DNA of 64,000 bases from an uncultured Gemmatimonadales bacterium (GTDB taxonomy: Bacteria > Gemmatimonadota > Gemmatimonadetes > Gemmatimonadales > GWC2-71-9): the NCBI GenBank assembly GCA_963695555.1, contig CAVOGR010000001.1, positions 640,001 through 704,000 of the forward strand. The letters are read 5' to 3'. A program made the translations under genes and the position numbers. Shown here in pieces: positions 13,970 through 37,388 of this stretch (position 1 is the first letter of the stretch; the number at the start of each line of letters is the position of its first letter). Below the pieces are notes generated by a model. The model had not been told where the DNA came from, did not search any database, and was given only the letters and a program-made list of their open reading frames with translations.

Positions 13970-16900
13970 TCACGCGAAAGGCTCGGCCCGCTTCATCCAC
14001 TTCGCGAGGTCTTTCTCCTTTGGGTTGAGCGGCGTGCCCGGGTGAATGATCTGTACCGGACACTTCTCTGCGGCCATGACCAGCTCCTTGAACGTGCCGG
14101 CCTTCGGATCCTTGATGTATGCCTGCTTCTTGTCGTTGTAGGCGAACATACGCTTGTTCATGTTGGTGCACTCGTCGCACGTGGTGCACCGCGCCGAGTC
14201 GATCCACGGCCCCAGCACCAGGCCCTCTTCTTCCTCTTCCTCCACGGCGGCCGGCGCGGCCGCCGAAGCCGGAGCTACGGCGACCGGGGCGGCTGCGGCA
14301 GTGGCGCTCGCCGCCGGTGCGGCCCGCAGGTCACTCTCACCGGGTTCGAGGCGCAATGGTGCCAAGCCGGGTTGGGACTGGACTTGTGCCAAGAGATCCG
14401 CCACGGTCCGCTGGCCGTTGCCCGCCCGGACCAGGCCCTCCGCCATGCGCCGTGCGATGACCCGCGGATACCGGGTCTTGAGGTCGGCGATCTTCGCTTC
14501 GTACTCTGCGCGAAGGGCCTCGACTTTCGCGGCGAATTCCTGTTCCACCGATTCCTCGACTAAGCCTCGCACCTCCTCCGTCGCCTCGAGCCCGGCCAGC
14601 TGCTTGAGTTGGGACCAGACTTCGAGACGGTCCTCCGCCAGCCGGACGATCTCATTCGAGGCGACGAGCCGGCCCAGCCGGTTGCCGTCCTGGTGGACAT
14701 AAATGAATGGGGTGTGACCCTCCCGTTCTTCCGGGGCCAGCTCCAGATACTCATGGAAGGGCACATACTCCCCTTCGGCATCCCGAGCCAACGGGCTGAA
14801 GTGTTTCTTGAACCTCGTTTCGGTGGCGGCCCAGTCGGCGATGGTCAGCGGCAGCGTCATGACTGCTTCGTTGCCATCCTCGTCCTGGTACTTGAGGTCG
14901 TACTCCGGCCAGGTGTCCCGGATCGATGGGTTGCCGTCGAGCGATAGCCGTTCGGGGAAGGATGTTCCCTGCGCCGGGTCGAACACCAAGACCGGGTAGG
15001 CCCGGGTCTCGAGCGCCAGCCTCGCCGCCTTGGTCGAGGCGTCGTCGCCGAGGCCATGCTCCGGCGGGCAGGGAGAGTGGAGCATGAACACCGAGGGATA
15101 ATGCGATTGGAGACCGCGGAGGACGCCGCCGATCAAGTGGGACGACGCCGCTTGCGACGACTGGAGCACGAAGACGTTGCGATGGGCCATCGCGATGAGC
15201 GACATCTCCTTGCGGGTCTCCTCCTTGCCGTGCTGTCCCTTTCCGAACGCGGCCATGTCGCTGACCTGCCCGAGGAACCCGCTGGTGCAGGCCTGTCCGC
15301 CGGTGTTGGAGTAGACCTGGGTATCGAGCACCACGACCCGGATCGGCTTGCCGGACGCCAGGAGCCGGGACAGGTTTTGGAATCCGATGTCGAGCATGGC
15401 GCCGTCGCCGCCCAAGGCGATGATCGGCGGACACATATCGAACTCATCCTCGTTGAACTGGCGCCATTCGAACCGGGTGAACTCCCGCTCGTGCTCGGCG
15501 GGGTCATATTGGTCGGCCAGCTCGAGCTCCGCGCGGCGCACCGCGACGAACCCATCGGCCATCTTCCGCATGTGCGCTTCGAACACTCCGATGGCGATCG
15601 AGGGCGCATCCTGGAAGAGGTGGTTGACCCATGGGAACGGATACGGATTGTACGGATACGTACTGCCCCAGACCGAGGAACAGCCGGTGGAGTTGGCCAT
15701 TCCCACCGTGGCCCGTCCCTTGCCGCTGGGCCCCTCGGTGTAGCGCCACCTCAGGTCCTTGAGATCGCGGAGCATGCGGGAGATCCGCTCTACCACGGCC
15801 TTCTTCTCACCCTGAAGCGGGATGTCTCCGCCGTCGAGAATCCGTGCCACGCCGTCCAGATCGACCTCCGACGCGAGAATGCCGCGTGCCTTGGCGTCGA
15901 GCTGGGCAATTAGCCCGTCCAGCCGTTCCACGTAGCGTTTCACCCGCGGCAGCATGAGCGCGTTGACGGCCGAGAGGACCAAGTGCACCACGGTCTTCTC
16001 GCCGCAGCCCATGCAGGCGCCGTCGCCACCCGCCATGGATCGGTAGTTGCTCTGCTTGAGCAAGAGCGATGACAAGACGCCGATGCCCTCTTCGAGACTC
16101 GCGATGTTGACGTAGCGATCGTTGGTCTCGGGCAGGTGCTGCCAGACCTTCCACGTGCGCCGCAGCTGATCGACGACTTCTTCGTCTTGCTTGATGGTGA
16201 TCAATGCCTGATCGGGGCACACTTCGACGCAGAGGTTACAGCCCTTGCATGCCTCCGGATTCACAGTGATCGAGAGCAACCCGCCGGTTCCCTTTTCCTT
16301 GGACTCCGGCAGATCGAAGAACGGTCCGGTCTTGGCCAAGGGGAATTCGACTAAGGCTGAGTAGACCGGCGCGAATTCATCATCGAGCTCGCGGCGGCGC
16401 TCCGGTGACAGGTTGAGCTTGTCCGTCACGGTCCGGTATGCGGTCGACAGCACATCGGAAAAGCTGGTCAAGGACACACCCTTGAGAATGCGACGTGACT
16501 CCATGGAAAGCGGCTTCACGATCTGGCGCAGCCGATCGAACGTCCGGCCGTTGGAGACGCTCGCAATCGCGGCGTGAATAACCTCATCGATTTCGCTCAC
16601 CACACCCGGGATGGCCGCATCGGGGCATTGGGTCCAACACTGGGCGCAGCCGGTGCACTTGTCCGCTATGAACTTGGGCACTTCGAACCGGATGTCGGTC
16701 ATATCGCGGATTGTGCTGGTAGCGGCCGGAATAGCGCTCATGGCCGCGAAGGGATCAGCGATCCCGTCGTCACCCGTCTTATAGAGGGCGCACACCTGTT
16801 CCCAGAACCTGCCCGGGTTGCCCATGCCGGGCCGTACGTTGGTGCCGTCGAGAATGGCCGGCATGACGGGCGGGGCACCAACTTCGCCTTCAGCCACTGA

Positions 16901-19009
16901 GAAAGCGGCGGTGTCCAGCGTCTGGACTTCATCGAAGCCGCGCCGGATGACGCGCAAATTGTCCTCCACCACCCGCTTGCCTCGGCTGCCGAACTTCTTG
17001 GACATCTGCGCGCGAATGCCGTCGAACAGCTTGACTTCATCCAGCCCTTCGCGCTCGATGAGTCCGGAGACCCGGAAGAACGCCCCCATGAACGCGGCAC
17101 CCTGCATGCGGTACCGGAGATCGGGGTCGGATGCCTCTTCCATGGCGATCTTGAACGCATCGAGGAAGTGCACCCGGATGCCGCGGTCTTTGATCGCCTT
17201 GTGGCCGGTGGCCGGGAGACTGGCCCAAAACTCCTCCGGAGACCGGTCGGTTTGGATCACGAAGACGCCGCCCTCGGCGAGCCCCGCGAGGGGATCGGAA
17301 TGGCGGAACACGTTGGGATCGGGTGAGAGCACGACGTTCACATTCTTGAGCTCGCAGTTGAGCCTGATGGGCTCCTTGGCGAGCACCGCATAGAACGTGG
17401 TCGGCTGGCCCTTCTTTTCCGACCCGTACTTGGGGTTGGCCTTGATGTACATGCCTAGGAGTTCCGAGGCCGTCATGGCGACGTTCTTCCCCATCGTGAT
17501 CGCCCCCCAGCCACCCACGGAATGGATGCGAATGGCGGTGGATCCTTTGGGGAGGAGGTTGACGCCGTCCGCCGGTGGGAGCGACAGCTCCACCAGCTTG
17601 GGGTAGGTCTCCAAAAGTTCCTGCTGCCAGATCTCAAGCTTGGGCAGTCGGGTTCCCTGCCGGATGAAGTCGATCCCGAGATAGAACTGCCGCCGGTTCG
17701 CTCCTCCAGGCAGCATGTTCTCGACCGCCGCGATGAGATCGTGCGGTTGGAGATCGCGGCTGCCGAGTCCGAAACACCCCGCGTAGAAGGCCGGTACCTC
17801 GGACGGGCCGCATGCGGCTAGGCCCGGGAACGGGGCCGAACCGTTGCCCCGCGAATTTTCCGCGGCCTTGCTCATCGCCGCACGGATCTCACGGAGAATT
17901 GGTGGATCGACCGCGAGCGGCTGGTCCAGCCGCTCGAGCACCGTCACGGCCCGCTTGCCCTTGAGCAAGTGGGTGATGACATCCGCGGGGAAGGGCCTGA
18001 ACATCGTCACGTTCAGGATGCCGATCTTGAGTCCGCGGGTCTCGCGCAGATAGTCGCACACCGCCTCGGCGTTGGGCACCACCGAGCCCTGCCCGGCGAT
18101 GACGAACTCGGCGTCATCCAACCGATAGCCCGAGGCCCGCGCGTATTGCCGGCCCGTCAAGGCGGCGTATTCCGCGAAGACCTGGTCGGTAAGCGCCAGC
18201 AGGTGGTCGAAATAGAACGGACGTTGGGCCGCGACACCTTGCTGGTAGCTGTCCTGATTCTGCACGACGCCCGTCATGGTCGGGTAGTCGAGATCGAAGA
18301 TTTCGGGAATCCGGCGACGGCGGTCACCGAAGACGTATCGCTGCGCCGGCGTGGGAGACTCGATCATGTCGGAGGGGTCGCCAAGGAACTCCTTGACGAG
18401 CTCGCGCTCCGGCATGAGGACGGATTCGATGACGTGGCTGGTGAGGAACCCGTCTTGGGCGCAGATGCCGGGATTGAGCGACAGCTCGGCGACCTTGTGG
18501 GCAATCAGGTTCAGATCGGCCGCCTCTTGCGCGTCCTTGGCGAAGAGCTGGAAGAACCCGGTATCGTCCACCGCGTGATAGTCGTCGTGCCCCGCGTGCA
18601 CGTTGAGCGCGTGCTTGGTCATGGCCCGTGCGGCGATGTTCAGCACGTAGGTCAAGCGCTTCCCGACCGCGGCGTACAGCGACTCGTGCATGTACGCGAT
18701 GCCCTGGCCGCTGGAGAAGTTGGTGGCGCGGAGTCCTGCCATGCTCATTCCGGCAGTGACCGCGGCCGCGGCGTGTTCACCTTCGGGCTCGAAGAAGATG
18801 AGCCGTCGGCCGTTGACGTTGGTCTTGCCCTCGGCCACGGCAGCCGCCCAGCCTTCGCCCATCTGGGTCGACGGGGTGATCGGATACGCTCCGGCTCCTT
18901 CGCTGGCCGCCGTTTCCATCTCGACAATGGAGCTGGTGCCGTCGACCGCCGTGGGAATGCCGGGGTACTTCGGTGAAGCAGTCGGGGGAGTCTTCTTCTT
19001 GAAAATCAC
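13970..19009 (-). CDS. Large single-chain pyruvate:ferredoxin oxidoreductase (NifJ/PFOR-type) with extra C-terminal ferredoxin domain
   Basis: YPITPST, GACMGCGE, STGCSSVWG, GGDGAMLDIGFQ, VYSNTGGQ; two ferredoxin Cys motifs plus C-terminal CTTCDEC...CP. Confidence 0.92.
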   Translation of the reverse strand: MIFKKKTPPTASPKYPGIPTAVDGTSSIVEMETAASEGAGAYPITPSTQMGEGWAAAVAEGKTNVNGRRLIFFEPEGEHAAAAVTAGMSMAGLRATNFSSGQGIAYMHESLYAAVGKRLTYVLNIAARAMTKHALNVHAGHDDYHAVDDTGFFQLFAKDAQEAADLNLIAHKVAELSLNPGICAQDGFLTSHVIESVLMPERELVKEFLGDPSDMIESPTPAQRYVFGDRRRRIPEIFDLDYPTMTGVVQNQDSYQQGVAAQRPFYFDHLLALTDQVFAEYAALTGRQYARASGYRLDDAEFVIAGQGSVVPNAEAVCDYLRETRGLKIGILNVTMFRPFPADVITHLLKGKRAVTVLERLDQPLAVDPPILREIRAAMSKAAENSRGNGSAPFPGLAACGPSEVPAFYAGCFGLGSRDLQPHDLIAAVENMLPGGANRRQFYLGIDFIRQGTRLPKLEIWQQELLETYPKLVELSLPPADGVNLLPKGSTAIRIHSVGGWGAITMGKNVAMTASELLGMYIKANPKYGSEKKGQPTTFYAVLAKEPIRLNCELKNVNVVLSPDPNVFRHSDPLAGLAEGGVFVIQTDRSPEEFWASLPATGHKAIKDRGIRVHFLDAFKIAMEEASDPDLRYRMQGAAFMGAFFRVSGLIEREGLDEVKLFDGIRAQMSKKFGSRGKRVVEDNLRVIRRGFDEVQTLDTAAFSVAEGEVGAPPVMPAILDGTNVRPGMGNPGRFWEQVCALYKTGDDGIADPFAAMSAIPAATSTIRDMTDIRFEVPKFIADKCTGCAQCWTQCPDAAIPGVVSEIDEVIHAAIASVSNGRTFDRLRQIVKPLSMESRRILKGVSLTSFSDVLSTAYRTVTDKLNLSPERRRELDDEFAPVYSALVEFPLAKTGPFFDLPESKEKGTGGLLSITVNPEACKGCNLCVEVCPDQALITIKQDEEVVDQLRRTWKVWQHLPETNDRYVNIASLEEGIGVLSSLLLKQSNYRSMAGGDGACMGCGEKTVVHLVLSAVNALMLPRVKRYVERLDGLIAQLDAKARGILASEVDLDGVARILDGGDIPLQGEKKAVVERISRMLRDLKDLRWRYTEGPSGKGRATVGMANSTGCSSVWGSTYPYNPYPFPWVNHLFQDAPSIAIGVFEAHMRKMADGFVAVRRAELELADQYDPAEHEREFTRFEWRQFNEDEFDMCPPIIALGGDGAMLDIGFQNLSRLLASGKPIRVVVLDTQVYSNTGGQACTSGFLGQVSDMAAFGKGQHGKEETRKEMSLIAMAHRNVFVLQSSQAASSHLIGGVLRGLQSHYPSVFMLHSPCPPEHGLGDDASTKAARLALETRAYPVLVFDPAQGTSFPERLSLDGNPSIRDTWPEYDLKYQDEDGNEAVMTLPLTIADWAATETRFKKHFSPLARDAEGEYVPFHEYLELAPEEREGHTPFIYVHQDGNRLGRLVASNEIVRLAEDRLEVWSQLKQLAGLEATEEVRGLVEESVEQEFAAKVEALRAEYEAKIADLKTRYPRVIARRMAEGLVRAGNGQRTVADLLAQVQSQPGLAPLRLEPGESDLRAAPAASATAAAAPVAVAPASAAAPAAVEEEEEEGLVLGPWIDSARCTTCDECTNMNKRMFAYNDKKQAYIKDPKAGTFKELVMAAEKCPVQIIHPGTPLNPKEKDLAKWMKRAEPFA

Positions 19010-27170: not shown

Positions 27171-28106
27171 TCACGGCACAGCAGCGTGGAGCGGGACTCG
27201 AGGAGCGCCTGCCGGGCGCTTCAACGCCTTGAGCCACACCCAATCCCAGTTCACGAAGATCAGCAGAAGCAGCGCAGTGACGAAAGTCAAATTCATCGCA
27301 TATGCGATACCGATATGGAATGCCAGCGCGGCAGGCACGAACCAGCGCCGGGCCATGGACGAGAACATGACGGACACAAATCCGAACTCGAGGACGAGTG
27401 CGCCAATGGCGATTCCGAGGCAAATCGTGGGATGCGACGCGATCCAGAGCCCAAGCGCCTGGAAGCGGGCCACTTCGGGGTCCTGCACCAGATAGAGAAT
27501 CCAGCGCCGGATGTTGTCGGCGGACACCCAGTCCAATCCCGTCCGCACGATCTTCGACCAGCCGGAGAAGAGATAGATTTCGCATATCAGCAGCTGGATG
27601 AGTCGAAGCTGCCACGAGTAGGCCAATCCTGGGCTCGGCTCGCGGTTTCGGCCGGGTGTAATGAGGGAAAGGCGGTCATCGCAGCGCGACAGGGAAAGGA
27701 GGATGAGAGCCAAGACGGGAATGGTGAGACCGCGAACGTACGGCGTCGATATCCAGATGATCCCTTCGAGTGGCGCCAGGTGGTAGAGCAGGATCCCGGC
27801 TATGGCACAGCACACGCGGGCGTAGATACCTACCAACGCTCCGACGAGCGTGACGAGCGCCACGACGAGGAGAATACGCTCCAGTTCCGGGTGACCGGGG
27901 AAGACGAGGTACCGCCACATCGTGCTCGGGTCCACCCGAGACCAGAAGACTGACGGTAGCCCGGAAATGGCTGGGTAGTCGCGGGAGAGGAGGATCCAAA
28001 GAGCCTGGGCCGCTACCAGCACTCGAGCCACTGCCAGATTGAGCGCAGATGCGTGCTGGAACCAGAACCAATCCCAGGACGAGCCCCTGGGAGCCACGCC
28101 TGTCAT
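27171..28106 (-). CDS. HTTM / vitamin K-dependent carboxylase-like (SdpB-like) membrane protein, copy 1
   Basis: WDWFWF, NLAVARV, YSWQLRLIQL..EIYLFSGWSKI, LEFGF, AFHIGI. Confidence 0.72.
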   Translation of the reverse strand: MTGVAPRGSSWDWFWFQHASALNLAVARVLVAAQALWILLSRDYPAISGLPSVFWSRVDPSTMWRYLVFPGHPELERILLVVALVTLVGALVGIYARVCCAIAGILLYHLAPLEGIIWISTPYVRGLTIPVLALILLSLSRCDDRLSLITPGRNREPSPGLAYSWQLRLIQLLICEIYLFSGWSKIVRTGLDWVSADNIRRWILYLVQDPEVARFQALGLWIASHPTICLGIAIGALVLEFGFVSVMFSSMARRWFVPAALAFHIGIAYAMNLTFVTALLLLIFVNWDWVWLKALKRPAGAPRVPLHAAVP

Positions 28107-28819
28107 GGCGTCTGCTCCGGGAATTCGTGGAGCACCTCTCGGACGAGCTCGGTCCGGCCTTCATCGACATTCCACCATTCCCGAATGACCCGCACACCGA
28201 CGAACGGCTCGGCAGGGGCATCATCCGGCCGGGACCACACGGTGGGATGCAGCATGTGCTCCGGTGCGGTGAGCGGTCCGAGAAATCGATGGAGATACCC
28301 CACGCGGCGGCCCTGCCGTGCCTGGACTCGCCCTGCATTGGCACGATCGAGCAGCCAGCGGCTCGCCTCATCCTGCTCCGCGGGTGTCAGGGTGGTGAAT
28401 CGGAGATCGAGCCACGCGATCAGTTCTTCCCATTGGAGCGGATGCCAGGATCGAGAATCGACGACGTGTTCTTGGCCGTTCGCACCAATGGCGAACACGC
28501 GGGCGTGACCGACCTCGGGCGAGCGCACGTCGGGGATCATGGACCAGGCCGAGAACGGCCAGAGTTCTCGTCGCGAGAGTCCTGCTGCCATACTGATTCC
28601 CAGAGTGAACACCACGAGCGCATTGACGGCCCGCCGACGCGTGTACGATGATCGTCCGGTATGTTCCGTCCACCATACCCGTGCCGCCGAGAGAAGGAAC
28701 ACCACCCAGCCGAGGGCCGGCACCAGGTTCTTGACCCAGCGCGGGATGGTACTCTCCGCCATGAAATCTGGAATGCGCCGCTCTTGCACCGTCGCCCTCC
28801 GCAGTCGTGCTGCGATCAA
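28103..28819 (-). CDS. HTTM partner protein (SdpA-like), copy 1 (alternative start 28762)
   Basis: Two TM helices then RELWPFSAWSM; coupled to the HTTM gene by an ATGA overlap. Confidence 0.6.
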   Translation of the reverse strand: MIAARLRRATVQERRIPDFMAESTIPRWVKNLVPALGWVVFLLSAARVWWTEHTGRSSYTRRRAVNALVVFTLGISMAAGLSRRELWPFSAWSMIPDVRSPEVGHARVFAIGANGQEHVVDSRSWHPLQWEELIAWLDLRFTTLTPAEQDEASRWLLDRANAGRVQARQGRRVGYLHRFLGPLTAPEHMLHPTVWSRPDDAPAEPFVGVRVIREWWNVDEGRTELVREVLHEFPEQTP

Positions 28820-29748: not shown

Positions 29749-29856
29749 CAGTGGGCGACTGTGTCTCGGGCAACGCGACGCACGATCAAGCCGGTGCGGT
29801 GACGCATGGGGTGTGGGATCGTTGGGCGGCGGGATATGTTTGGCCCATGCACACCG

Positions 29857-30513
29857 ATGGGTCTGAGTGACCCCGCGGCCGATCGATCGACGCCCATGGA
29901 GAACGAGGTGCGCCACGTGAGGCCGGACGACGCGCCTGCGGCGGCTCGAGTCCGGGTGGTGGAGCCGTCGGAGGTCCGGGCTGTTGCCTCGCTGCTCAAG
30001 CGCTCGAACGAAGTAATCGAATCGCGAATTGTCGGGGCGAGCATGGGTGCCACGATGCCGGCGGGGACTCGGATCCGCATCCGGTGCGGCGACGTGTCGG
30101 AATGGTCGATCGGCGCAGTCGTGGTCTTCTTCACGGGACGCACCCTAGTAGGACACCGAGTCGTCGCACGGGGAACGGGACGGGCCAAGGACTATTGGGT
30201 CACGCGGGGCGATGGTACGATCTTCTGTGATGCGCCGGTGCACCAAGACGTGATCCTCGGGGTGGTGACTGAGTGCGCGGGTGGAACCGACTGGCACCCG
30301 GTGCCCGCCTGTGTCCCGGCCGGCTCCGTTCGTCGACTGGCTGCAAGCGCCGCCGGCGCCATCCTTCGCTTATTGCTCAAAATCGACGTTGCCGTTGCCA
30401 CGCGGTGGGCCACGGGGACCGTTCGATTGGGCCATGGGTTCAGGCGGCTCCGTGGTGAGAAGCTCGGGACCCGGCCCGCCGCCGCCGGCCAGGACGACTC
30501 GCCCGGCGGCTAG
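29857..30513 (+). CDS. S24/S26 family (signal peptidase I-like, Ser-His) peptidase
   Basis: GASMGATM nucleophile box, VGHRVV, TRGD; start uncertain (29857 or 29896). Confidence 0.7.
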   Translation: MGLSDPAADRSTPMENEVRHVRPDDAPAAARVRVVEPSEVRAVASLLKRSNEVIESRIVGASMGATMPAGTRIRIRCGDVSEWSIGAVVVFFTGRTLVGHRVVARGTGRAKDYWVTRGDGTIFCDAPVHQDVILGVVTECAGGTDWHPVPACVPAGSVRRLAASAAGAILRLLLKIDVAVATRWATGTVRLGHGFRRLRGEKLGTRPAAAGQDDSPGG

Positions 30514-30521
30514 CTGCGGTC

Positions 30522-31304
30522 TCAATCGATTCCCAGTCGCTCCCGTACTGCGGCCCGGCGGGCATCGGACTGCTGGACCGCCACCTCGACCTCGCCCGGA
30601 TCGAAGCCCGCCTCGAGCCGCGCCTCCGTGGCCACCCCGTACTTCACGACGTTGGTGCCGCCCTTGGCGAAGACCTGCTCGAAGGCGCGCGCACCCTGGG
30701 TGAGGGCGCGGGACATGTGCAGCACGTTCCGCGGATCCTTGCCGAGTTGCTCCTTGATCCAGTCGTTGGCGAATCGGATGTGCAGCACTTCGTCGGCCTG
30801 CTGGGTCTCATACATCTCGGCGAGTTTGTCCTCGCCGTCCCGTCGGGCCTCCTCAATGGCGTGCGTGACCGCATCCAGTCCGTCGGCCTCGAAGGTCCGG
30901 TTTTGGACGGCGAGGCGCCCGACGAGCGTATCGATCTTCCGAAGAATCCGGTACTGGAAGTTCATCACCGGGTATTGGCCGACCTCTCCGCCACGTGCCT
31001 CGAGGAGCTCGCGGTAGGTGTCGACATGACGCGCTTCATCAGCAGCCTGCCGGGCCAACCAATACCGGATGTTCCAGTCGGCGTCCGGGAAGTCGGTGAT
31101 ATTGCTGGCCGCGTTTTCCAGGACGTTGCATTCCTCGTTCATCTGCCGGTGGAAGAACTCCATTTTCCACTCGGGATCATCCTCCGGCAGGTTGACCATG
31201 TCGACCCAGACTTCCTTCACGGTAAAGCGTTCGTCGCGCGCGGGACCCTCTCCGAAGAACGCAGGGTCGAGTGCCGGGTGGATCGTCGATGCCATGGTGT
31301 TCAC
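30522..31304 (-). CDS. Ferritin-like diiron protein (DUF455-like) A
   Basis: NEE...DEARH...FEA...DEVLH: full diiron carboxylate ligand set. Confidence 0.8.
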   Translation of the reverse strand: MNTMASTIHPALDPAFFGEGPARDERFTVKEVWVDMVNLPEDDPEWKMEFFHRQMNEECNVLENAASNITDFPDADWNIRYWLARQAADEARHVDTYRELLEARGGEVGQYPVMNFQYRILRKIDTLVGRLAVQNRTFEADGLDAVTHAIEEARRDGEDKLAEMYETQQADEVLHIRFANDWIKEQLGKDPRNVLHMSRALTQGARAFEQVFAKGGTNVVKYGVATEARLEAGFDPGEVEVAVQQSDARRAAVRERLGID

Positions 31305-32098
31305 CTTAGGGCGGATGGAATGATGGTGCGGAATCCGGCCTGGCTGAGCACTTCCTTGATTTCATCCATCGTAAACTCTGCCTCGAGCCGATCCTCGATA
31401 TTGACCGCCGGGGGGCGGAGCTTCTCTTCGGTCCACACCGTCCCGACGACGTTGGTCTCGCCTGGTTTGAGCTGCATGGAGCCGATCGCCTTTCCCAGAA
31501 AGCGTACGGCCATCGCCACCTTCAGCAGGATGGCCGGATTCTCCTCGGTCATGCGCTTGATCCACCGGTTCCCGAAGCGCACGTGGGTAATCTCGTCGGC
31601 CAGGATGCTTTCGAGCATGTCGGCGGTGGCATGATCGCCTTCCTTCCGCCATTTGTCCCGGAGCGTGCCCAGGAGATCGATCAACCCCGCCTCGAAGGTG
31701 CGGTTCTGCACCGCGAGGCGGCCCGGCAGGTTGTCCAGCATGTTGGTTACGCCCCATTCGAAGTTTGCGATGGGGAACTCGCCCTTCGCGCCGCCCATTT
31801 CCACCAGCCGGTTCAGCAGGAGGTCGGCGTGCCGGGCCTCATCCGTGGCCTGCCGCGCCAGGTTCATGCGGAGGCCCCAGGGCGCCTCCGGGAAGTCCAC
31901 CAGAGCCTGCGCCGCGATTTCCATCGCGCCGGTCTCATTGTTCATGTGGCGGTGGATCCGCTCACGGCGGGAAATCTCCGACATGTCGGGCCACTCGTGC
32001 ATCTCGTCGTCGGTATTGACGACCGTGAAGCACTCCTCCCGTGCCGGATCGGCGGCGAGGACAAAGCCGCGGATCTCCTTGGTTGGTGCACTGTTCAC
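31301..32098 (-). CDS. Ferritin-like diiron protein (DUF455-like) B
   Basis: NNE...DEARH...FEA...DEITHVRFG; paralog of A; GTGA overlap. Confidence 0.8.
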   Translation of the reverse strand: MNSAPTKEIRGFVLAADPAREECFTVVNTDDEMHEWPDMSEISRRERIHRHMNNETGAMEIAAQALVDFPEAPWGLRMNLARQATDEARHADLLLNRLVEMGGAKGEFPIANFEWGVTNMLDNLPGRLAVQNRTFEAGLIDLLGTLRDKWRKEGDHATADMLESILADEITHVRFGNRWIKRMTEENPAILLKVAMAVRFLGKAIGSMQLKPGETNVVGTVWTEEKLRPPAVNIEDRLEAEFTMDEIKEVLSQAGFRTIIPSALR

Positions 32099-32670
32099 GA
32101 CGAGACCCTCTCGAGCGTCTGTGGCGGCGCGGGGCGGAAGGCGATGAAATCCGCCGGCGCCTTGGCGATGGACTCGAACCGGCTCTTCCAGCCCTTGTCC
32201 TTGGGCCGGAGGTCCGGTCGCTGGTCACGGAATTGCCGGTAGTCCGCTTGCATGCGCTGGAAGTCGCTGAGCACCCGCTCGATGACCCGGACGGACGGTT
32301 CGTCCTGCATCTGGTTGGTGCCGTCGAGATAGGCTTGATAGCGCTGCTCGAGATCCGGCAGGAACCCGGCATACATCGCCTCCGCCCGCTCCGCCGTGTC
32401 GGTCAGACCGGCGAGGGTGTCCAGCACCTTCATGTAGGCGTCGGTGGGCCGGGCGCTGTAGTGCAGCGGCGCTCTGAGCTCACTGGTGCGTTGGCCCAAC
32501 CCGTCGGCTTGCTGGGCCATGTCCCAGATGTGGCGGCCGAACAAAATCTTGGCCTCGAGCTCCGGGGTGAGCGGTACCCAACGGGCCAGCGTTTCCATCA
32601 GGTTGACGCTGATGAAACGAAACGTGCCAATGGCGTCGGCTCGCTCGCGAATCGTGTTGTATCCCATCAC
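32095..32670 (-). CDS. Degenerate ferritin-like helical protein (likely metal-free partner subunit)
   Basis: LMETLARW..ELEAKILFGRHIWDMAQQAD: helical bundle pattern with ExxH replaced; translationally coupled on both sides. Confidence 0.6.
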   Translation of the reverse strand: MMGYNTIRERADAIGTFRFISVNLMETLARWVPLTPELEAKILFGRHIWDMAQQADGLGQRTSELRAPLHYSARPTDAYMKVLDTLAGLTDTAERAEAMYAGFLPDLEQRYQAYLDGTNQMQDEPSVRVIERVLSDFQRMQADYRQFRDQRPDLRPKDKGWKSRFESIAKAPADFIAFRPAPPQTLERVSS

Positions 32671-33686
32671 ACATCTCCTAGGGCTTCAATGAGGTCCGTA
32701 GTGTCATCTGGCGTGCCAACGTCGAGAAAGAAACAGCGCGTGCTCGACATGAGACGCAGCATCTGCATGATTCGCAAGGCCCGTGGCACACCCCACAACG
32801 TGCACCCTAGCGGCGTCAGGAGCGACAGGTGGTCGCGTCCCGGGCTGAACCCTTCGAGGTGGGCTGTCTCGCTGAATCGCCGCAGGAAGATAATCGCGCG
32901 CACCGGCGCTTCGGAGTGACCGGCGCCTGGGAACAGGCTGGCCACCTCGCCTCGCAGGCGGCGGGAACCGTCGGGGAATTGTTCGTGGCGCAGTCCTCCC
33001 TGCTCGACCAGCCGGTCCACGGCACGCGGGCGCGGGCCCTCGCGAATCGATACCGACCGGCGCATTGGGATCAGGTCCAGCGTGCCGACCCTGACTCCGG
33101 CGATCTCGTCGCCCAGGAACCCGTGTCCGCGCTCCGCCAATGCGAGAGAGAGGGTCGTCTTCCCCGATCCCTTCGGCCCCACCAGGAGAATTCCCGAGCC
33201 CCGGACGCTCGCCGAGGCGGCATGAAAGAAGAGGAGGTCGCGCTGGCGTCTGAGCAGTCGGTTGAGCGCCAGATTGCCCAGGAGCGACTGCCACTGGAAG
33301 TCGCGATCGGCCAGAGCGTGGGGGCCGGAGAACGCGAAGGGAGCCCCAGGGCCGGGAGCATCGAGCCGGCGCCATCCGGCGGACGGCGGCTGCCCCTCGG
33401 TGTATCCCCGCTCGCCGAACAGCTCGAGCGTGAAGTCCACCAGGTCGAGCGGCTCGGCATCCTCGAAGCTGACCAGCGCGGCGTTGAATCGTTCGAGCAG
33501 CCGCACCTGGCAGAGTACCCTTGGCAGGTCCGCCCGATCGGGGCCCGGGACGACGCACTCGGCGTAGAGTTCCCGGAACCGCTCACCGAGCGGTTCGTCC
33601 TCGGACTGGATGCCCAGATAGCCGTCCCCGATCTGATACCAATCGGGGAGGCCCGTGAGGGGCCTCCCCGATTCCTGCTCCTGCAC
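32667..33686 (-). CDS. HPr-kinase-like P-loop kinase (RiPP peptide kinase type); start uncertain (GTG 33686 or 33758)
   Basis: FFHAAS, Walker A GPKGSGKTT, FLGDE; the ORF-track start at 33935 overlaps the precursor gene and is unlikely. Confidence 0.8.
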   Translation of the reverse strand: MQEQESGRPLTGLPDWYQIGDGYLGIQSEDEPLGERFRELYAECVVPGPDRADLPRVLCQVRLLERFNAALVSFEDAEPLDLVDFTLELFGERGYTEGQPPSAGWRRLDAPGPGAPFAFSGPHALADRDFQWQSLLGNLALNRLLRRQRDLLFFHAASASVRGSGILLVGPKGSGKTTLSLALAERGHGFLGDEIAGVRVGTLDLIPMRRSVSIREGPRPRAVDRLVEQGGLRHEQFPDGSRRLRGEVASLFPGAGHSEAPVRAIIFLRRFSETAHLEGFSPGRDHLSLLTPLGCTLWGVPRALRIMQMLRLMSSTRCFFLDVGTPDDTTDLIEALGDV

Positions 33687-33790
33687 CGCAATCGACTGGC
33701 TACACCACTGGGAGATTGCGTCTGACGCGCCCGCCAGGTTGGGCTGGCCGTGCGTCACATCATGGGCGATCCGAGGGTTCGAATCGGCCC
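33641..33790 (-). other. Three tandem stem-loops downstream of the precursor gene
   Basis: Hairpins at 33764-33790, 33723-33757 and a perfect 14-bp stem AATCGGGGAGGCCC-N5-GGGCCTCCCCGATT at 33641-33673. Confidence 0.65.
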
Positions 33791-33922
33791 TCAGCCCCAC
33801 CAGGACGCGCCGGCGCTCGTAATCTGGAACGCCTTCAAGACCTCGGCCTCGTCCATGACTTTGACTGCGGGGGCCACATAACGGCGCCGAGTCGACTCCG
33901 ACTGCATCTTCTGTTCGGCCAT
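33791..33922 (-). CDS. 43-aa RiPP precursor peptide candidate MAEQKMQSESTRRRYVAPAVKVMDEAEVLKAFQITSAGASWWG
   Basis: GGAG RBS 7 nt before ATG; YxxP RRE-recognition motif; lies directly between PqqD/RRE and the kinase. Confidence 0.8.
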   Translation of the reverse strand: MAEQKMQSESTRRRYVAPAVKVMDEAEVLKAFQITSAGASWWG

Positions 33923-34051: not shown

Positions 34052-34324
34052 TCACGATGACTCGACAATCAGGTCGAGTCGCTGGAACTCCTCGAGGACG
34101 CGCTGGACGTCGGCGGTGGCGGTCGCCACGTCGACACCGTCGAACGACTCACACACCTCGGCTGCCAGCTCCTCCACGGTGCTGGGGGAGGAGAGACAGT
34201 TCCACAACAGCGTGGAGGTCTCGTTCAGGACGCAGAATTGCTTGCTTGACGGGTTCAGGAGAATCGTCTCTTCCAGCATCGGCGATCCCTCGATGTTGGG
34301 ATTGCGCCGGTATCGAATGCTCAC
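34052..34324 (-). CDS. Stand-alone PqqD-family RiPP recognition element (RRE)
   Basis: 90 aa; ETILLN...FCVLNETSTLLWNCL...TVEELAAEVCESFDGV...DVQRVLEEFQRLDLI fits the PqqD pattern. Confidence 0.9.
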   Translation of the reverse strand: MSIRYRRNPNIEGSPMLEETILLNPSSKQFCVLNETSTLLWNCLSSPSTVEELAAEVCESFDGVDVATATADVQRVLEEFQRLDLIVESS

Positions 34325-34383: not shown

Positions 34384-35262
34384 TCAAGATGGACGGCGCC
34401 CGCCCGAAAACGACTCGGCGGTCTTGGATGGTGGCGCGGCCACCGAACGCCGGACCAGCTGCCGGAACGGAACCACCAACTGATGCGGCAACGACTCCGG
34501 CATATCCAGCCCATCTACCCCGTAGCGTTCCGGACGCTCGGCGTGGGCGGCCGCCGTGCCGAACAAGTGGTCCCAGAGGCTGAGCATCTGTCCCAGGTTC
34601 TTGTTGTGGTCCTTCGGGTCCGCCGAGTGATGCACCGAGTGGAAGATGGGGCTGACCACGATGCGGTAGAGCGGACCGAACCGCCAGTTGAGCTCCGTAT
34701 GGTGGAGCGCCTGAAGCGAGGTCGCCAAAATGTAAAGCGGCATCCACGACCGAGTTGGAAGGCCGAGGGCAAACACGAATACCACGAACAGCGCAACATC
34801 GAGCAGCAACCGGTCGAATGGATGCCGACGATATTGCGTGAGCGTGGTCAGCCGCTCTTGCGAGTGGTGGACGCTGTGAAATGCCCAAAGGAGCGGCACG
34901 CTGTGCTGGAGCCGGTGGACCCAGTAGAGCAGGAAATCGCCCGCCACCCAAAATACCAGCAATGCGAGCCAGAGAGGCGCCGACGCCAGGAGGTCGAATT
35001 TGAGGAACTGGAGTTTCGCTTCGAAGGCGTTGGCGACTGCCGCGAAAATCAAGATATGGTAGAAGGCGCCACGGTAGAAGAGGCTATATACCACGTCGTT
35101 CAGGAAGCTTCTCGTCTTGTAGCGGGCGAGATCCGCCCCGGCCCGACCTTCGAGCACCACAATCGCCGCCAAGAATGGCAAGAGCAAGAGCCCGGCCCTG
35201 ACGGCGGACATGCCAAGCTCTTGGAGACGCATGGTTGCAACCAGTTCTGCCAGTGTGCTCAC
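34384..35262 (-). CDS. Sterol desaturase / fatty-acid hydroxylase superfamily membrane diiron enzyme
   Basis: His boxes YWVHRLQH, FHSVHHS, ALHH and FHSVHHS; NLGQMLSLWDHLFGT. Confidence 0.88.
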   Translation of the reverse strand: MSTLAELVATMRLQELGMSAVRAGLLLLPFLAAIVVLEGRAGADLARYKTRSFLNDVVYSLFYRGAFYHILIFAAVANAFEAKLQFLKFDLLASAPLWLALLVFWVAGDFLLYWVHRLQHSVPLLWAFHSVHHSQERLTTLTQYRRHPFDRLLLDVALFVVFVFALGLPTRSWMPLYILATSLQALHHTELNWRFGPLYRIVVSPIFHSVHHSADPKDHNKNLGQMLSLWDHLFGTAAAHAERPERYGVDGLDMPESLPHQLVVPFRQLVRRSVAAPPSKTAESFSGGRRPS

Positions 35263-35363: not shown

Positions 35364-37388
35364 TCAATCGAATTCGGCCTCGAAGTGCCGGGCCCAGGCC
35401 GCGAGGCCGACCAGCCGCCAGACCAAGAAGCTGTTGCGCAGCTGATCGCCTTTGGAAATCCGGCTCAGGAATCCCGACAGCGGTTGCCCCGATTGGACCG
35501 CCACTAGCAAGCGCTCGACCACTCGTCGGTTGACCGCGGGAATCCGACCGGCCTCCGCCAGCAAACCTGGCAGGTTCGGGACCAAGGGAATCCACGCCTG
35601 AATGGGGACGGCAAACCCTACCTTGTCACGCCGATCCAGGATGGCGTCCGGCACCAGGCCCCGCATAGCAGCCCGGAATACCGCCTTGCTCGTGCCTGAA
35701 GCGTCCACCAGATACTCGGCTGGGAGGGACAGGATAAATTCGGCGAGTTTGGTGGTGAGGAACGGCAGCCGCCCCTCGACCGAATACGCCATGGAGTTGC
35801 GGTCCTCGTAGCGCAGCAGGGTGGGGAGGCTTTTCTCGCTGATCGAATGCCACAGGGTGCGCCGAATCCCTTCCTTGCCGACACCCACCCACCAGAGGTT
35901 CCGCGTCCCGATGCCGTGAGCTCGGCACCACGCGCGGTCGATCCAGGGACGCTGGCCGCGCCCGGAGGCCTTGACGGCAGCGGTACCGAGCCAGGCCGGC
36001 AGGGCCATGGCGAGACCCCACAGGGCGGTGTGGCCGGCCGATGGATCCCAGGGCTGGCGCGAGGCCCTGGTTTGCCTCAGAAAGCGCGCCGCTTGGCCTA
36101 TCTGGCCGCGCCCCAGATGCTCTGCCATCCGAGCCGACCACAAGTAGCGATATCCGCCTAGGAGTTCGTCCGCTCCCTGCCCATCCAGGACCACCCGCAC
36201 ACCCGCTTCACTGGCGCGGCGGAATAGGCGGTTCTGGGCATAGATGGCGATGGTGCCGAACGGCTCATCCTGCGATTCGATGAGGTGGTCGAATTCCCGG
36301 ACCCATTCCCCCGGATCGAGGTGGATCTTACTGCTCACGGCCCCGGATGCCTTGTTGACCACATCGATCCAAGGTTCTTCGCTCACGGTGCCGGCGCCGC
36401 CGATATAGCTGAATGTGTGAATATCGAGTTGCGGGCCACCCAAATGCCGCATCGCCATGACGATGGCCGAGGAGTCGAGGCCTCCCGAGAGCATGGTGCC
36501 GACGCGAACATCGCTGCGCAGATGAAGCGAGACGCTTTCGAGGAACAGGTCCCTGAGCTCGGCTGCCGCCGCTTCGCGCGAGACGGCTCGTTCATAGTCC
36601 AGGTCCGGCATCCAATAGCAGCTGGGCTCAGTCATGCCGGGGCCGTCCGGGCGGACTTCGGCCCAATGGGCCGCCGGCATGCTCCGGATGCTCGAGAAGA
36701 GCGTCGCTTCGCCGAAATCGGTGATGCCGCGGTCTAGGTAGTCGTAGAGTCGGTGTGGGTCGACCCGGCGATCGGTGCCGGGCAGCTGCAGGAGGGCGGA
36801 TATCTCGGACGCGAAGGCGAACTCGCCGTTTCGCAGGGTGTAGTACAGGGGCTTCATGCCAAAGGGGTCGCGGGCCAGGAAGAGTCGTCGGTCGCGCCGA
36901 TCCCAAACAGCGAAGGCGAACATCCCGACCAAGCGGGGCAGGCACGCCCGGCCCCATTCGGCATAGGCGGCCAGGAGCACCTCCGTGTCCGACCGCGAGC
37001 GGAATCGATGTCCCCGCGACGACAGCTCGTCCCTCAGCTCGACGTAGTTGTAGATCTCGCCATTGAACACGATCGCATAGCGGCCGTCGGCGGTGAGCAT
37101 CGGCTGATGGCCCGCCGAAGATATATCGATGATGGCGAGGCGCCGATGGCCGAGGACGAGGGTGCCTGATGCGGATCCGGCCTCGTTCGACGCTCCCGTA
37201 CCCTCGTGTGGGAGTGAGGTGCGTCGACCGTCGCGATCGATGGTCGCCGTCGATCCCTCGCGGGGGCAGTCGACCAGGAAGCCCAGATCGTCAGGCCCCC
37301 TGTGGGCAAGCCGATCGAGCAGGCCGCGCACGGTTGCCAGCGCGACCGTCCCCTCACGATGCCCGAGGTATCCGACGATGCCGCACAT
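35364..37388 (-). CDS. asnB: Asparagine synthetase B-like glutamine amidotransferase
   Basis: N-terminal MCGI, HRGPD, HRRLAIID, FNGEIYNY, LSGGLDSS, GQGADEL, EGRLPFL. Confidence 0.9.
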   Translation of the reverse strand: MCGIVGYLGHREGTVALATVRGLLDRLAHRGPDDLGFLVDCPREGSTATIDRDGRRTSLPHEGTGASNEAGSASGTLVLGHRRLAIIDISSAGHQPMLTADGRYAIVFNGEIYNYVELRDELSSRGHRFRSRSDTEVLLAAYAEWGRACLPRLVGMFAFAVWDRRDRRLFLARDPFGMKPLYYTLRNGEFAFASEISALLQLPGTDRRVDPHRLYDYLDRGITDFGEATLFSSIRSMPAAHWAEVRPDGPGMTEPSCYWMPDLDYERAVSREAAAAELRDLFLESVSLHLRSDVRVGTMLSGGLDSSAIVMAMRHLGGPQLDIHTFSYIGGAGTVSEEPWIDVVNKASGAVSSKIHLDPGEWVREFDHLIESQDEPFGTIAIYAQNRLFRRASEAGVRVVLDGQGADELLGGYRYLWSARMAEHLGRGQIGQAARFLRQTRASRQPWDPSAGHTALWGLAMALPAWLGTAAVKASGRGQRPWIDRAWCRAHGIGTRNLWWVGVGKEGIRRTLWHSISEKSLPTLLRYEDRNSMAYSVEGRLPFLTTKLAEFILSLPAEYLVDASGTSKAVFRAAMRGLVPDAILDRRDKVGFAVPIQAWIPLVPNLPGLLAEAGRIPAVNRRVVERLLVAVQSGQPLSGFLSRISKGDQLRNSFLVWRLVGLAAWARHFEAEFD

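Follow-up and report, generated by a model that had tools for sequence, protein, structure and literature searches.

In a window of 64,000 nucleotides from an uncultured Gemmatimonadales bacterium (contig CAVOGR010000001.1, positions 640,001 to 704,000), three chained genes were found to encode a ferritin-like trio, comprising two paralogs of the DUF455 family, here termed A and B, and a 191-aa relative without metal ligands, p191. The trio follows a short precursor gene and the gene of an HprK-like protein, in a cassette that resembles a pathway for peptides that are made by the ribosome and modified after translation (RiPPs) and, within these, that of the linear polyphosphorylated peptides (LPPs). 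We lean, by somewhat more than an even chance, towards a reading in which p191, A and B form a hetero-oligomer responsible for oxidative tailoring in a RiPP pathway on an LPP-like chassis, with a Trp-Trp pair (WW) of the precursor peptide as its likeliest site.

An earlier, sequence-only reading of this DNA had described a trio of adjoining open reading frames (ORFs), with two paralogs of ~260 aa and a 191-aa gene upstream of them, and both the coordinates and the overlaps were confirmed. The end of p191 (TCG TCG TGA) shares the 4 nt GTGA with the start of A (GTG A) at positions 32098-32095, and the same 4-nt GTGA overlap recurs between A (AGG TGA) and B (GTG A) at 31304-31301; these overlaps suggest that p191, A and B are translationally coupled. 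As the stop of the HprK-like gene also lies inside the start of p191 (GTG TGA TG at 32670-32667), the chain consists of four genes rather than three. Eighty related loci, numbered in the style L001, were retrieved with the p191 profile from metagenome-assembled genomes (MAGs) of Gemmatimonadota, Acidobacteriota and Proteobacteria.

Pairwise alignment of A and B revealed 38% identity across 240 columns (E 7e-49) and four motifs, which read HRHMNNE in A and HRQMNEE in B, QATDEARH in A and QAADEARH in B, GRLAVQNRTFEA in identical form in both, and ADEITHVRF in A and ADEVLHIRF in B. All four motifs and the complete E/ExxH/E/ExxH set that had been claimed for both paralogs were recovered in the translations and in the alignment. 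Scores of 106.1 bits for A and 77.2 bits for B against the Pfam model PF04305, both above its gathering cut-off of 34.3 bits, place the two proteins in DUF455; A additionally matched the Pfam Ferritin model PF00210 (32.2 bits, E 1.2e-7), and NCBIfam contained no model for p191, A or B. In ortholog alignments spanning the same three phyla, the ligand positions E55, E87, H90, E136, E169 and H172 of A were invariant in 42/42 sequences, as were E58, H93, E139, E172 and H175 of B in 41/41, while E90 of B was kept in 40 of the 41 orthologs and is K in L035. Larger, script-made alignments showed the six ligands of A in 66/66 full-length rows and those of B in 64/64, with the exception of E90 (63/64). 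The ligand pattern of ferritin-like diiron proteins, E/ExxH/E/ExxH on four core helices, was found in both A and B, the helices being seen in the structure model of A, and on the strength of these residues the two are probably O2-activating diiron-carboxylate subunits.

In its AlphaFold2 (AF2) model, which is of high confidence (predicted local distance difference test, pLDDT, 90.7; predicted template modelling score, pTM, 0.86), A folds into a helical bundle with long core helices at residues 41-68, 74-100, 124-152 and 156-186, to which N-terminal strands and C-terminal helices are added. The top Foldseek match of this model was an aldehyde-deformylating oxygenase (ADO; 4kvq, E 4.2e-3), and bacterioferritin was matched with a TM-score, normalised to the target, of ≤0.79, the identities to these ADO and bacterioferritin folds being 14-22%. 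The profile of A also matched bacterioferritin (E 9.4e-6), with both ExxH motifs of A lining up with the DExxH and ExxH of that protein. The model and the Foldseek search support a ferritin-like bundle for A, in the sense of a fold class and not of a family.

Other searches were less informative. The top sequence match of A in the PDB, Crov588, was dismissed as an artefact of 15 short repeated stretches, each insignificant alone. The nearest clusters in the ESM Atlas were unnamed, and the nearest named ones, DUF455 at 0.82/0.81, are to be taken as a lead only. A plasmid collection yielded nine distant DUF455 matches for A and no p191 homolog; the one context viewed, on Geobacillus pGS18, was uninformative. 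C-terminal to the four-helix core and outside it, a conserved motif R-L-E-A-x-F-x-x-x-E occupies residues 237-246 of A and 229-238 of B, and this may be a docking element.

For p191, no Pfam family was matched at E ≤ 0.01, and the DUF455 gathering cut-off was not reached. The protein is nevertheless one of many, with 280 homologous proteins at E ≤ 1e-3, no Pfam domain being present among the 120 listed, and with 417 cluster representatives in an exhaustive search; the named homologs are almost all annotated as "hypothetical protein" and come mainly from Gemmatimonadota and Acidobacteriota. In its AF2 model (pLDDT 92.7, pTM 0.89) p191 consists of four long helices (residues 7-34, 38-64, 92-117 and 124-150). 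Foldseek returned only weak matches, with query-normalised TM-scores (TMq) of 0.5-0.64, to ferritin-like and heme-oxygenase-like bundles (CADD, YciF-type, TenA, PaaA/PaaC), the PaaAC chains among the weak matches lying at TMq 0.48-0.56 and E 0.085-0.18; as for A, these matches speak for a fold class and not for a family. Sequence searches of the PDB with p191 gave nothing significant, the best E values being 0.096 with the single sequence and 0.044 with the profile.

The relationship of p191 to DUF455 became apparent from intermediates. In 19 of the 40 longer or more distant p191 relatives scanned, a C-terminal DUF455 domain stands behind a p191-like N-terminal domain. A profile built from 23 N-terminal domains of fusion or longer p191 relatives reached a probability of 100% over 179 columns of the p191 alignment (E 3.4e-44) and of 96.6% over 166 columns of the A alignment (E 6.6e-10). 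Individual proteins bridge the two families in the same way, namely the N-domain of P0317 (E 2e-21 to p191 and 2e-7 to A), P0381 (1e-13 and 4e-7) and P0275 (3e-28 and 7e-5). Because such intermediates match both families and some of them still keep ExxH (EAQH in P0381, ADEERH/ADERRH in P0317 and P0275), p191 is regarded as a degenerate domain derived from DUF455; since the homology runs via intermediates only, it counts as a diverged relative of DUF455 rather than as a recognised member.

When the equivalents of the ligands were read jointly from the direct, single-intermediate and N-domain-profile alignments, p191 was found to carry S21, M51, Q54, L104, F137 and M140 at the six ligand positions of A, all of them hydrophobic or neutral residues, so that 0/6 are kept. 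The direct p191-A alignment, which is weak, sets D50-M-A-Q-Q54 on D86-E-A-R-H90 of A. Across 41 members of the p191 family, position 51 is L in 17, F in 15, M in 6, T in 2 and A in 1, and thus never acidic. H prevails at position 54 (24 members), ahead of Q (14) and E (3); a hydrophobic or aromatic side chain occupies position 137 in 39 members, the other two having D there, and M, L or I fills position 140 in 41/41. We conclude from these alignments that p191 is a real, conserved and degenerate DUF455 homolog, in the window's copy of which all six ligand positions are replaced, in agreement with the previous description of a degenerate 191-aa protein with DMAQQ (residues 50-54) in place of ExxH, the homology being established via the intermediates. 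Four p191 relatives of 320-329 aa (P0271, P0281, P0284 and P0286) have a C-terminal extension of ~130-150 aa, for which neither a Pfam match nor similarity to A or B was found.

Natural fusions connect the three proteins. Six A-B fusions (P0391-P0396) match both A and B with identities of 51-57%, and in L043 the two form one uninterrupted ORF of 540 aa. One protein, P0397, is a p191-A fusion (45% and 54% identical), and P0398 is a single p191-A-B chain, which may be an assembly artefact, as its contig equals in length that of L075, where the genes look fragmented. In the distant fusions of a p191-like domain with DUF455, the DUF455 part was closer to A than to B in 18/19, which agrees with the gene order p191-A. 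That order is well kept, as p191 is followed directly by A and B in 65 of the 67 loci with room downstream, and the arrangement is thus not due to chance. The natural fusions of p191 with A and of A with B speak for a single hetero-oligomer of the three proteins. Three loci carry a third, A-like DUF455 gene immediately upstream of the HprK-like gene (L052, 8071-8829; L058, 8060-8818; L080, 8051-8839).

The trio shares its surroundings with a peptide precursor. The usual order of the loci is PqqD-type RiPP recognition element (RRE), precursor, HprK-like kinase, p191, A, B and then, often, an archaeal-type signal peptidase; adjacent HprK-like, precursor and PqqD genes accompany p191 in 62/67 loci with room upstream, and a homolog of the signal-peptidase-like protein is present in 48 of the 52 loci having at least 5.5 kb downstream. 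The idea of a heteromeric peptide-modifying oxygenase, put forward in the sequence-only reading, stands in so far as the fusions speak for a hetero-oligomer and the conserved cassette of RRE, precursor, kinase and trio speaks for a peptide substrate. By sequence the trio does not belong to the PaaA/PaaC system, as no PaaA_PaaC Pfam match was obtained, A matched Phenol_Hydrox only, below the cut-off (E 0.0098), and the 13 cluster proteins scanned include no reductase.

The precursor of the window has 43 aa and ends in SAGASWWG. Homologous small ORFs were found in 65/80 loci, and 67 precursors from these, together with that of the window, make up a set of 68. Their leader follows the consensus Y-E-x-P-x-.-x-V-M-x-E-x-E-.-L-x-x-F-Q-(I/V)-T, and the short cores are of the S-A-G-x-S-W-W or Q-(A/S)-M-x-T-W-W type. 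WW is present in 68/68 precursors and is the only invariant feature of the core; its spacing from FQ is 7 in 59/68. The tail behind WW is variable, with 34 forms in the 68 precursors, the commonest being G (19). The invariance of WW suggests that the Trp pair may be the target of oxidation, and it is the favoured site since it sits in a fixed register to the leader. The proposal of one paralog per Trp found no support, as a WWW core occurs together with two paralogs in L006 and a single WW together with three DUF455 copies in L080, the two other loci with an additional copy (L052 and L058) having yielded no precursor.

Precursors of the Acidobacteriota/Thermoanaerobaculia type have Q-(A/S)-M-x-x-W-W cores and tails that contain or end in Cys (GAC, IAGC, TTGGC, TMGVTCPCT). 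This set comprises L051, L055-L057, L059, L062, L064, L066-L068, L070-L073, L075, L076 and L078, of which L055 and L064 are labelled Burkholderiales and Rhizomicrobium, respectively; a Cys-Trp link is conceivable in these Cys-tailed precursors. In L037 and L039 two precursor genes each were found, the second lying ~6-7 kb downstream with PqqD and signal-peptidase-like genes of its own.

Several observations weigh against a single Trp-oxidising complex. Neither the A model nor the p191 model had a Foldseek match at E ≤ 0.001, and A therefore has no close solved relative. Direct comparison of p191 with A and B revealed no real similarity by BLASTP (E 17 and 2.5) and probabilities of only 3.3% and 0.3% by hhalign (E 0.013 for p191-A). 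B is located in a divergent operon in L019, and in L066 no B follows A, so that B is not always physically coupled to p191-A. Neither a reductase nor a ferredoxin was found among the 13 cluster proteins scanned, and none is conserved in the loci; a monooxygenase would need such a partner and an oxidase-type reaction would not, and the finding thus favours an oxidase-type (substrate-reduced) reaction or the use of a housekeeping ferredoxin. On the side of the peptide, WW may serve activity, export or peptidase recognition instead of oxidation, Ser/Thr is present in the core of 67/68 precursors, and the membrane FA_hydroxylase of the cluster, a second candidate oxidase, could act on Trp instead. 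Some of these points can be accommodated in another way, by taking A and B as independent homo-oligomeric diiron enzymes that carry out separate steps and p191 as a scaffold or chaperone with the HprK-like kinase, or as a binder of the peptide or phosphopeptide, which we hold to be unlikely but deserving of attention. The overlap of HprK-like and p191 genes (34/36 ORF pairs in the related loci) is at least as tight as that of p191 and A (25/39, the other 14 having gaps of ≤19 nt), with A and B overlapping in 38/58, these counts being approximate because a script picked the start of each ORF. The separate position of B in L019 and its absence downstream in L066 point in the same direction, as does P0399, one database protein in which an A-like DUF455 domain is fused to an HprK-like domain; moreover, the invariant Arg residues of p191 (R18, R30, R46, R61, R66, R128 and R139) could bind phosphate. 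Such a division of labour is made less likely by the six A-B fusions, the L043 ORF and the p191-A fusion, all among close orthologs, and by the 19 of 40 distant relatives in which a p191-like domain is joined to DUF455, with an Hpr_kinase Pfam match in none of the 40.

A hetero-oligomeric diiron enzyme of a peptide pathway might also act at a site other than the Trp pair, for instance by beta-hydroxylation or desaturation of another core residue, by oxidative trimming of the C-terminal tail, or on a group added by the kinase or a nucleotidyltransferase. The known ferritin-like chemistries are broad, the variable tail would fit a tail that is removed or ignored, and core Ser/Thr is nearly as constant as WW; but WW remains the sole invariant core feature, at a largely fixed distance from the leader, and the product of a nucleotidyltransferase present in 3/80 loci cannot be the general substrate. 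We consider an off-Trp site improbable, if still worth weighing. That the trio consists of iron-storage or oxidative-stress ferritin-like proteins merely lying beside a RiPP cluster is extremely improbable. The matches of A to Ferritin and to bacterioferritin profiles and the labels "bacterioferritin" or "rubrerythrin" that some databases give to homologs agree with such a function, but the frames are chained to the HprK-like gene of a peptide cassette whose gene order is kept in 65/67 and 62/67 loci of several phyla, A and B are proteins of ~260 aa with N- and C-terminal extensions whose best family is DUF455 and not Ferritin, and p191 is devoid of any of the ligands. The iron-storage reading was rejected on genomic context.

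In the pathway as we envisage it for the p191-A-B hetero-oligomer, the PqqD-type RRE would hold the Y-x-x-P leader, the HprK-like protein would phosphorylate core Ser/Thr, and a signal peptidase of the archaeal type would cut the leader after FQ(I/V)T, freeing a short product. These three roles are proposed because of the counterparts in the LPP pathway of Bacillota, where, according to Popov et al. (Nat Commun 2026, PMC13381572), LppB is a discrete RRE binding a YxxP leader, LppK is an HprK-like kinase that polyphosphorylates core Ser3, and LppS is an archaeal-type signal peptidase that cuts after F-E-T in an RRE-dependent manner. Within the trio, p191 would dock on A and A on B, the role of p191 being structural or substrate-presenting, and the complex would oxidise the short core while the leader is still attached, most likely at WW, by hydroxylation and/or cross-linking. 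Accessory enzymes (amidotransferase, formyltransferase, membrane hydroxylase, HTTM pair) would differ by lineage. A bolder version, in which A and B jointly convert WW into an oxygenated, cross-linked, tryptophylquinone-like chromophore, as the first ferritin-like (DUF455) diiron enzyme known to act on a ribosomal peptide, is speculative and in our estimate rather doubtful; if true, a new class of RiPPs, common among the Gemmatimonadota and Acidobacteriota of soil, would be defined and DUF455 would receive a function.

The cluster of the window spans about 25.9 to 37.4 kb and is flanked by 2-oxoacid:ferredoxin oxidoreductase genes on one side and by M28 peptidase and S7/EF-G/EF-Tu genes on the other. 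On the minus strand, the order is AsnB-like amidotransferase, FA_hydroxylase, PqqD-type RRE, precursor, HprK-like protein, p191, A and B; beyond the plus-strand gene of the signal-peptidase-like protein, the minus strand continues with a formyltransferase, a 238-aa protein, an HTTM protein and an NTP_transf_5 protein. The features are compiled in Table 1.

Table 1. Positions of the trio and of associated cluster genes in the window.
Feature	Positions	Strand	Remarks
Archaeal-type signal peptidase I-like protein, candidate leader peptidase	29806..30513	+	Convergent to the trio; exact start uncertain
B (DUF455), 260 aa, putative catalytic subunit of the diiron-carboxylate kind	30522..31304	-	PF04305 match
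A (DUF455), 265 aa, putative catalytic subunit of the diiron-carboxylate kind	31301..32098	-	PF04305 and PF00210 matches
p191 gene, 191 aa	32095..32670	-	From ORF list; 190 aa if the ATG at 32667 is used
HprK-like P-loop protein, putative peptide kinase	32667..33758	-	Start uncertain
Precursor peptide, 43 aa, ending SAGASWWG	33791..33922	-	GGAG 9 nt before ATG
PqqD-type discrete RRE	34052..34324	-	PF05402, E 2.8e-15, 56.8 bits, above cut-off
Membrane FA_hydroxylase (His-box diiron)	34384-35262	-	Pfam
AsnB-like amidotransferase	35364-37388	-	Starts MCG; intact glutaminase Cys

For the HprK-like gene, the GTG at 33758 is read as a tentative start, and the listed ORF extends to 33935 and overlaps the precursor gene; the protein matched Hpr_kinase_C (E 1.6e-5) and TIGR04352 (E 7e-12) below the cut-offs. 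The signal-peptidase-like protein matched TIGR02228 (E 5.2e-7) with 29.7 bits, under the cut-off of 51.85, and is a candidate leader peptidase by its likeness to LppS as portrayed in PMC13381572. The AsnB-like protein, with homologs in 50/80 loci, passed the asparagine synthase model TIGR01536 (422.4 bits versus a cut-off of 267.1) and remained under the lasso cyclase cut-off (289.7 versus 525); by analogy with TsrC, ScdTA and PesC, as presented in PMC13060819, C-terminal amidation of a peptide carboxylate or a nitrile-type role is possible. A lasso peptide reading was rejected, as the cluster proteins include no B2/transglutaminase-like protease, the AsnB-like protein with Cys1 stays below the cyclase cut-off, and no Asp/Glu, the macrolactam acceptor at positions 7-9 of lasso cores, stands between FQ and WW in the precursor of the window or, by eye, in the 68 precursors. 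The RRE matched the lasso PqqD models below cut-off.

FA_hydroxylase is found in 41/80 loci, sometimes in two copies, and in many Gemmatimonadales loci it lies downstream of B. The 238-aa protein, for which no Pfam match was obtained, is always paired with the HTTM membrane protein (window positions 27171-28819, minus strand), an arrangement that we presume to be similar to SdpA/SdpB; the pair is also met in L060, L072, L056 and L051, among others, and some loci have it twice or three times. The nucleotidyltransferase NTP_transf_5 is present in the window, yet in only three of the 80 loci. Outside the cluster, an ORF of 1679 aa was observed at positions 13970-19009 on the minus strand.

In the literature searched, no function has been reported for DUF455 (COG2833/PF04305/IPR007402), and no description of a ferritin-like or diiron enzyme in a RiPP pathway was found. 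Neither ferritin-like nor DUF455 occurs in the text available for the LPP paper (PMC13381572), whose supplements cover the co-occurrence of domains and may name related clusters, and the RRE-Finder paper contains 0 occurrences of ferritin, DUF455 and HPr. The trio would represent a hetero-oligomeric ferritin-like oxygenase with a pseudo-subunit in a new context, that of a RiPP pathway and of the DUF455 family, and the cassette appears to be a widespread, unstudied cluster of soil bacteria for a small, presumably modified peptide with an invariant Trp pair. It would give DUF455 its first functional context, with a testable substrate in the form of a 43-aa peptide with defined leader, RRE and core. 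If confirmed, the trio would bring a third fold of iron enzymes into peptide tailoring, next to the oxidative enzymes that depend on multinuclear non-heme iron (MNIOs) and the HExxH enzymes. The catalytic pair and its pseudo-subunit, which occur naturally both split and fused, would be useful for studying the evolution of hetero-oligomeric oxygenases.

In PaaA/PaaC of phenylacetyl-CoA epoxidase, as in the alpha/beta pairs of bacterial multicomponent monooxygenases, a ferritin-like diiron subunit carries out catalysis beside a homolog free of metal, which in the former is PaaC. The trio shares with PaaA/PaaC the architecture only, that is, a catalytic subunit next to a homologous subunit devoid of the metal site. 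It differs in having two ligand-complete paralogs and one degenerate protein, in the lack of reductase and small-subunit genes, and in its presumed substrate, which is a ribosomal peptide and not an acyl-CoA or a hydrocarbon. In comparison with ADO and bacterioferritin, the four-helix-bundle diiron core of A is alike, and the N-terminal strands and C-terminal helices are extra.

The fold of the MNIOs (DUF692) is not known to be related to the ferritin-like one. What these enzymes and their partners (MbnBC, TglHI) have in common with the proposed system is an iron- and O2-dependent tailoring of a peptide and an adjoining gene for a non-catalytic partner. In the trio, a degenerate paralog of the catalytic subunit would take the place of this partner, and the RRE is encoded separately. 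A pseudo-enzyme paralog of an MNIO inside a RiPP cluster is described in PMC13060819.

The closest parallel is offered by the LPPs. A signal peptidase I-like peptidase, a discrete RRE and an HprK-like kinase are all encoded in the window and kept in the related loci (48/52 and 62/67), the PqqD-type protein of the window scoring above its cut-off and the HprK-like and signal peptidase I-like proteins giving matches that are significant but under the curated cut-offs. Among the LPP core genes, the nucleotidyltransferase is rare here, and an ABC (MsbA-like) transporter was not seen among the window genes scanned at 19-46 kb. The LPP leader YxxPxVLxHQxIxFETxxS and the leader found here, YExPx.xVMxExE.LxxFQ(I/V)T, resemble one another in Y-x-x-P and an end of the F-x-T type, but differ in spacing and core. 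The LPPs are termed restricted to Bacillota in PMC13381572, whereas the trio cassette occurs in MAGs of Gemmatimonadota, Acidobacteriota and Proteobacteria and is combined with a very short core with invariant WW. The LPP-type chassis of RRE, HprK-like kinase and signal-peptidase-like leader peptidase would thereby be extended past Bacillota to phyla with few characterised natural products.

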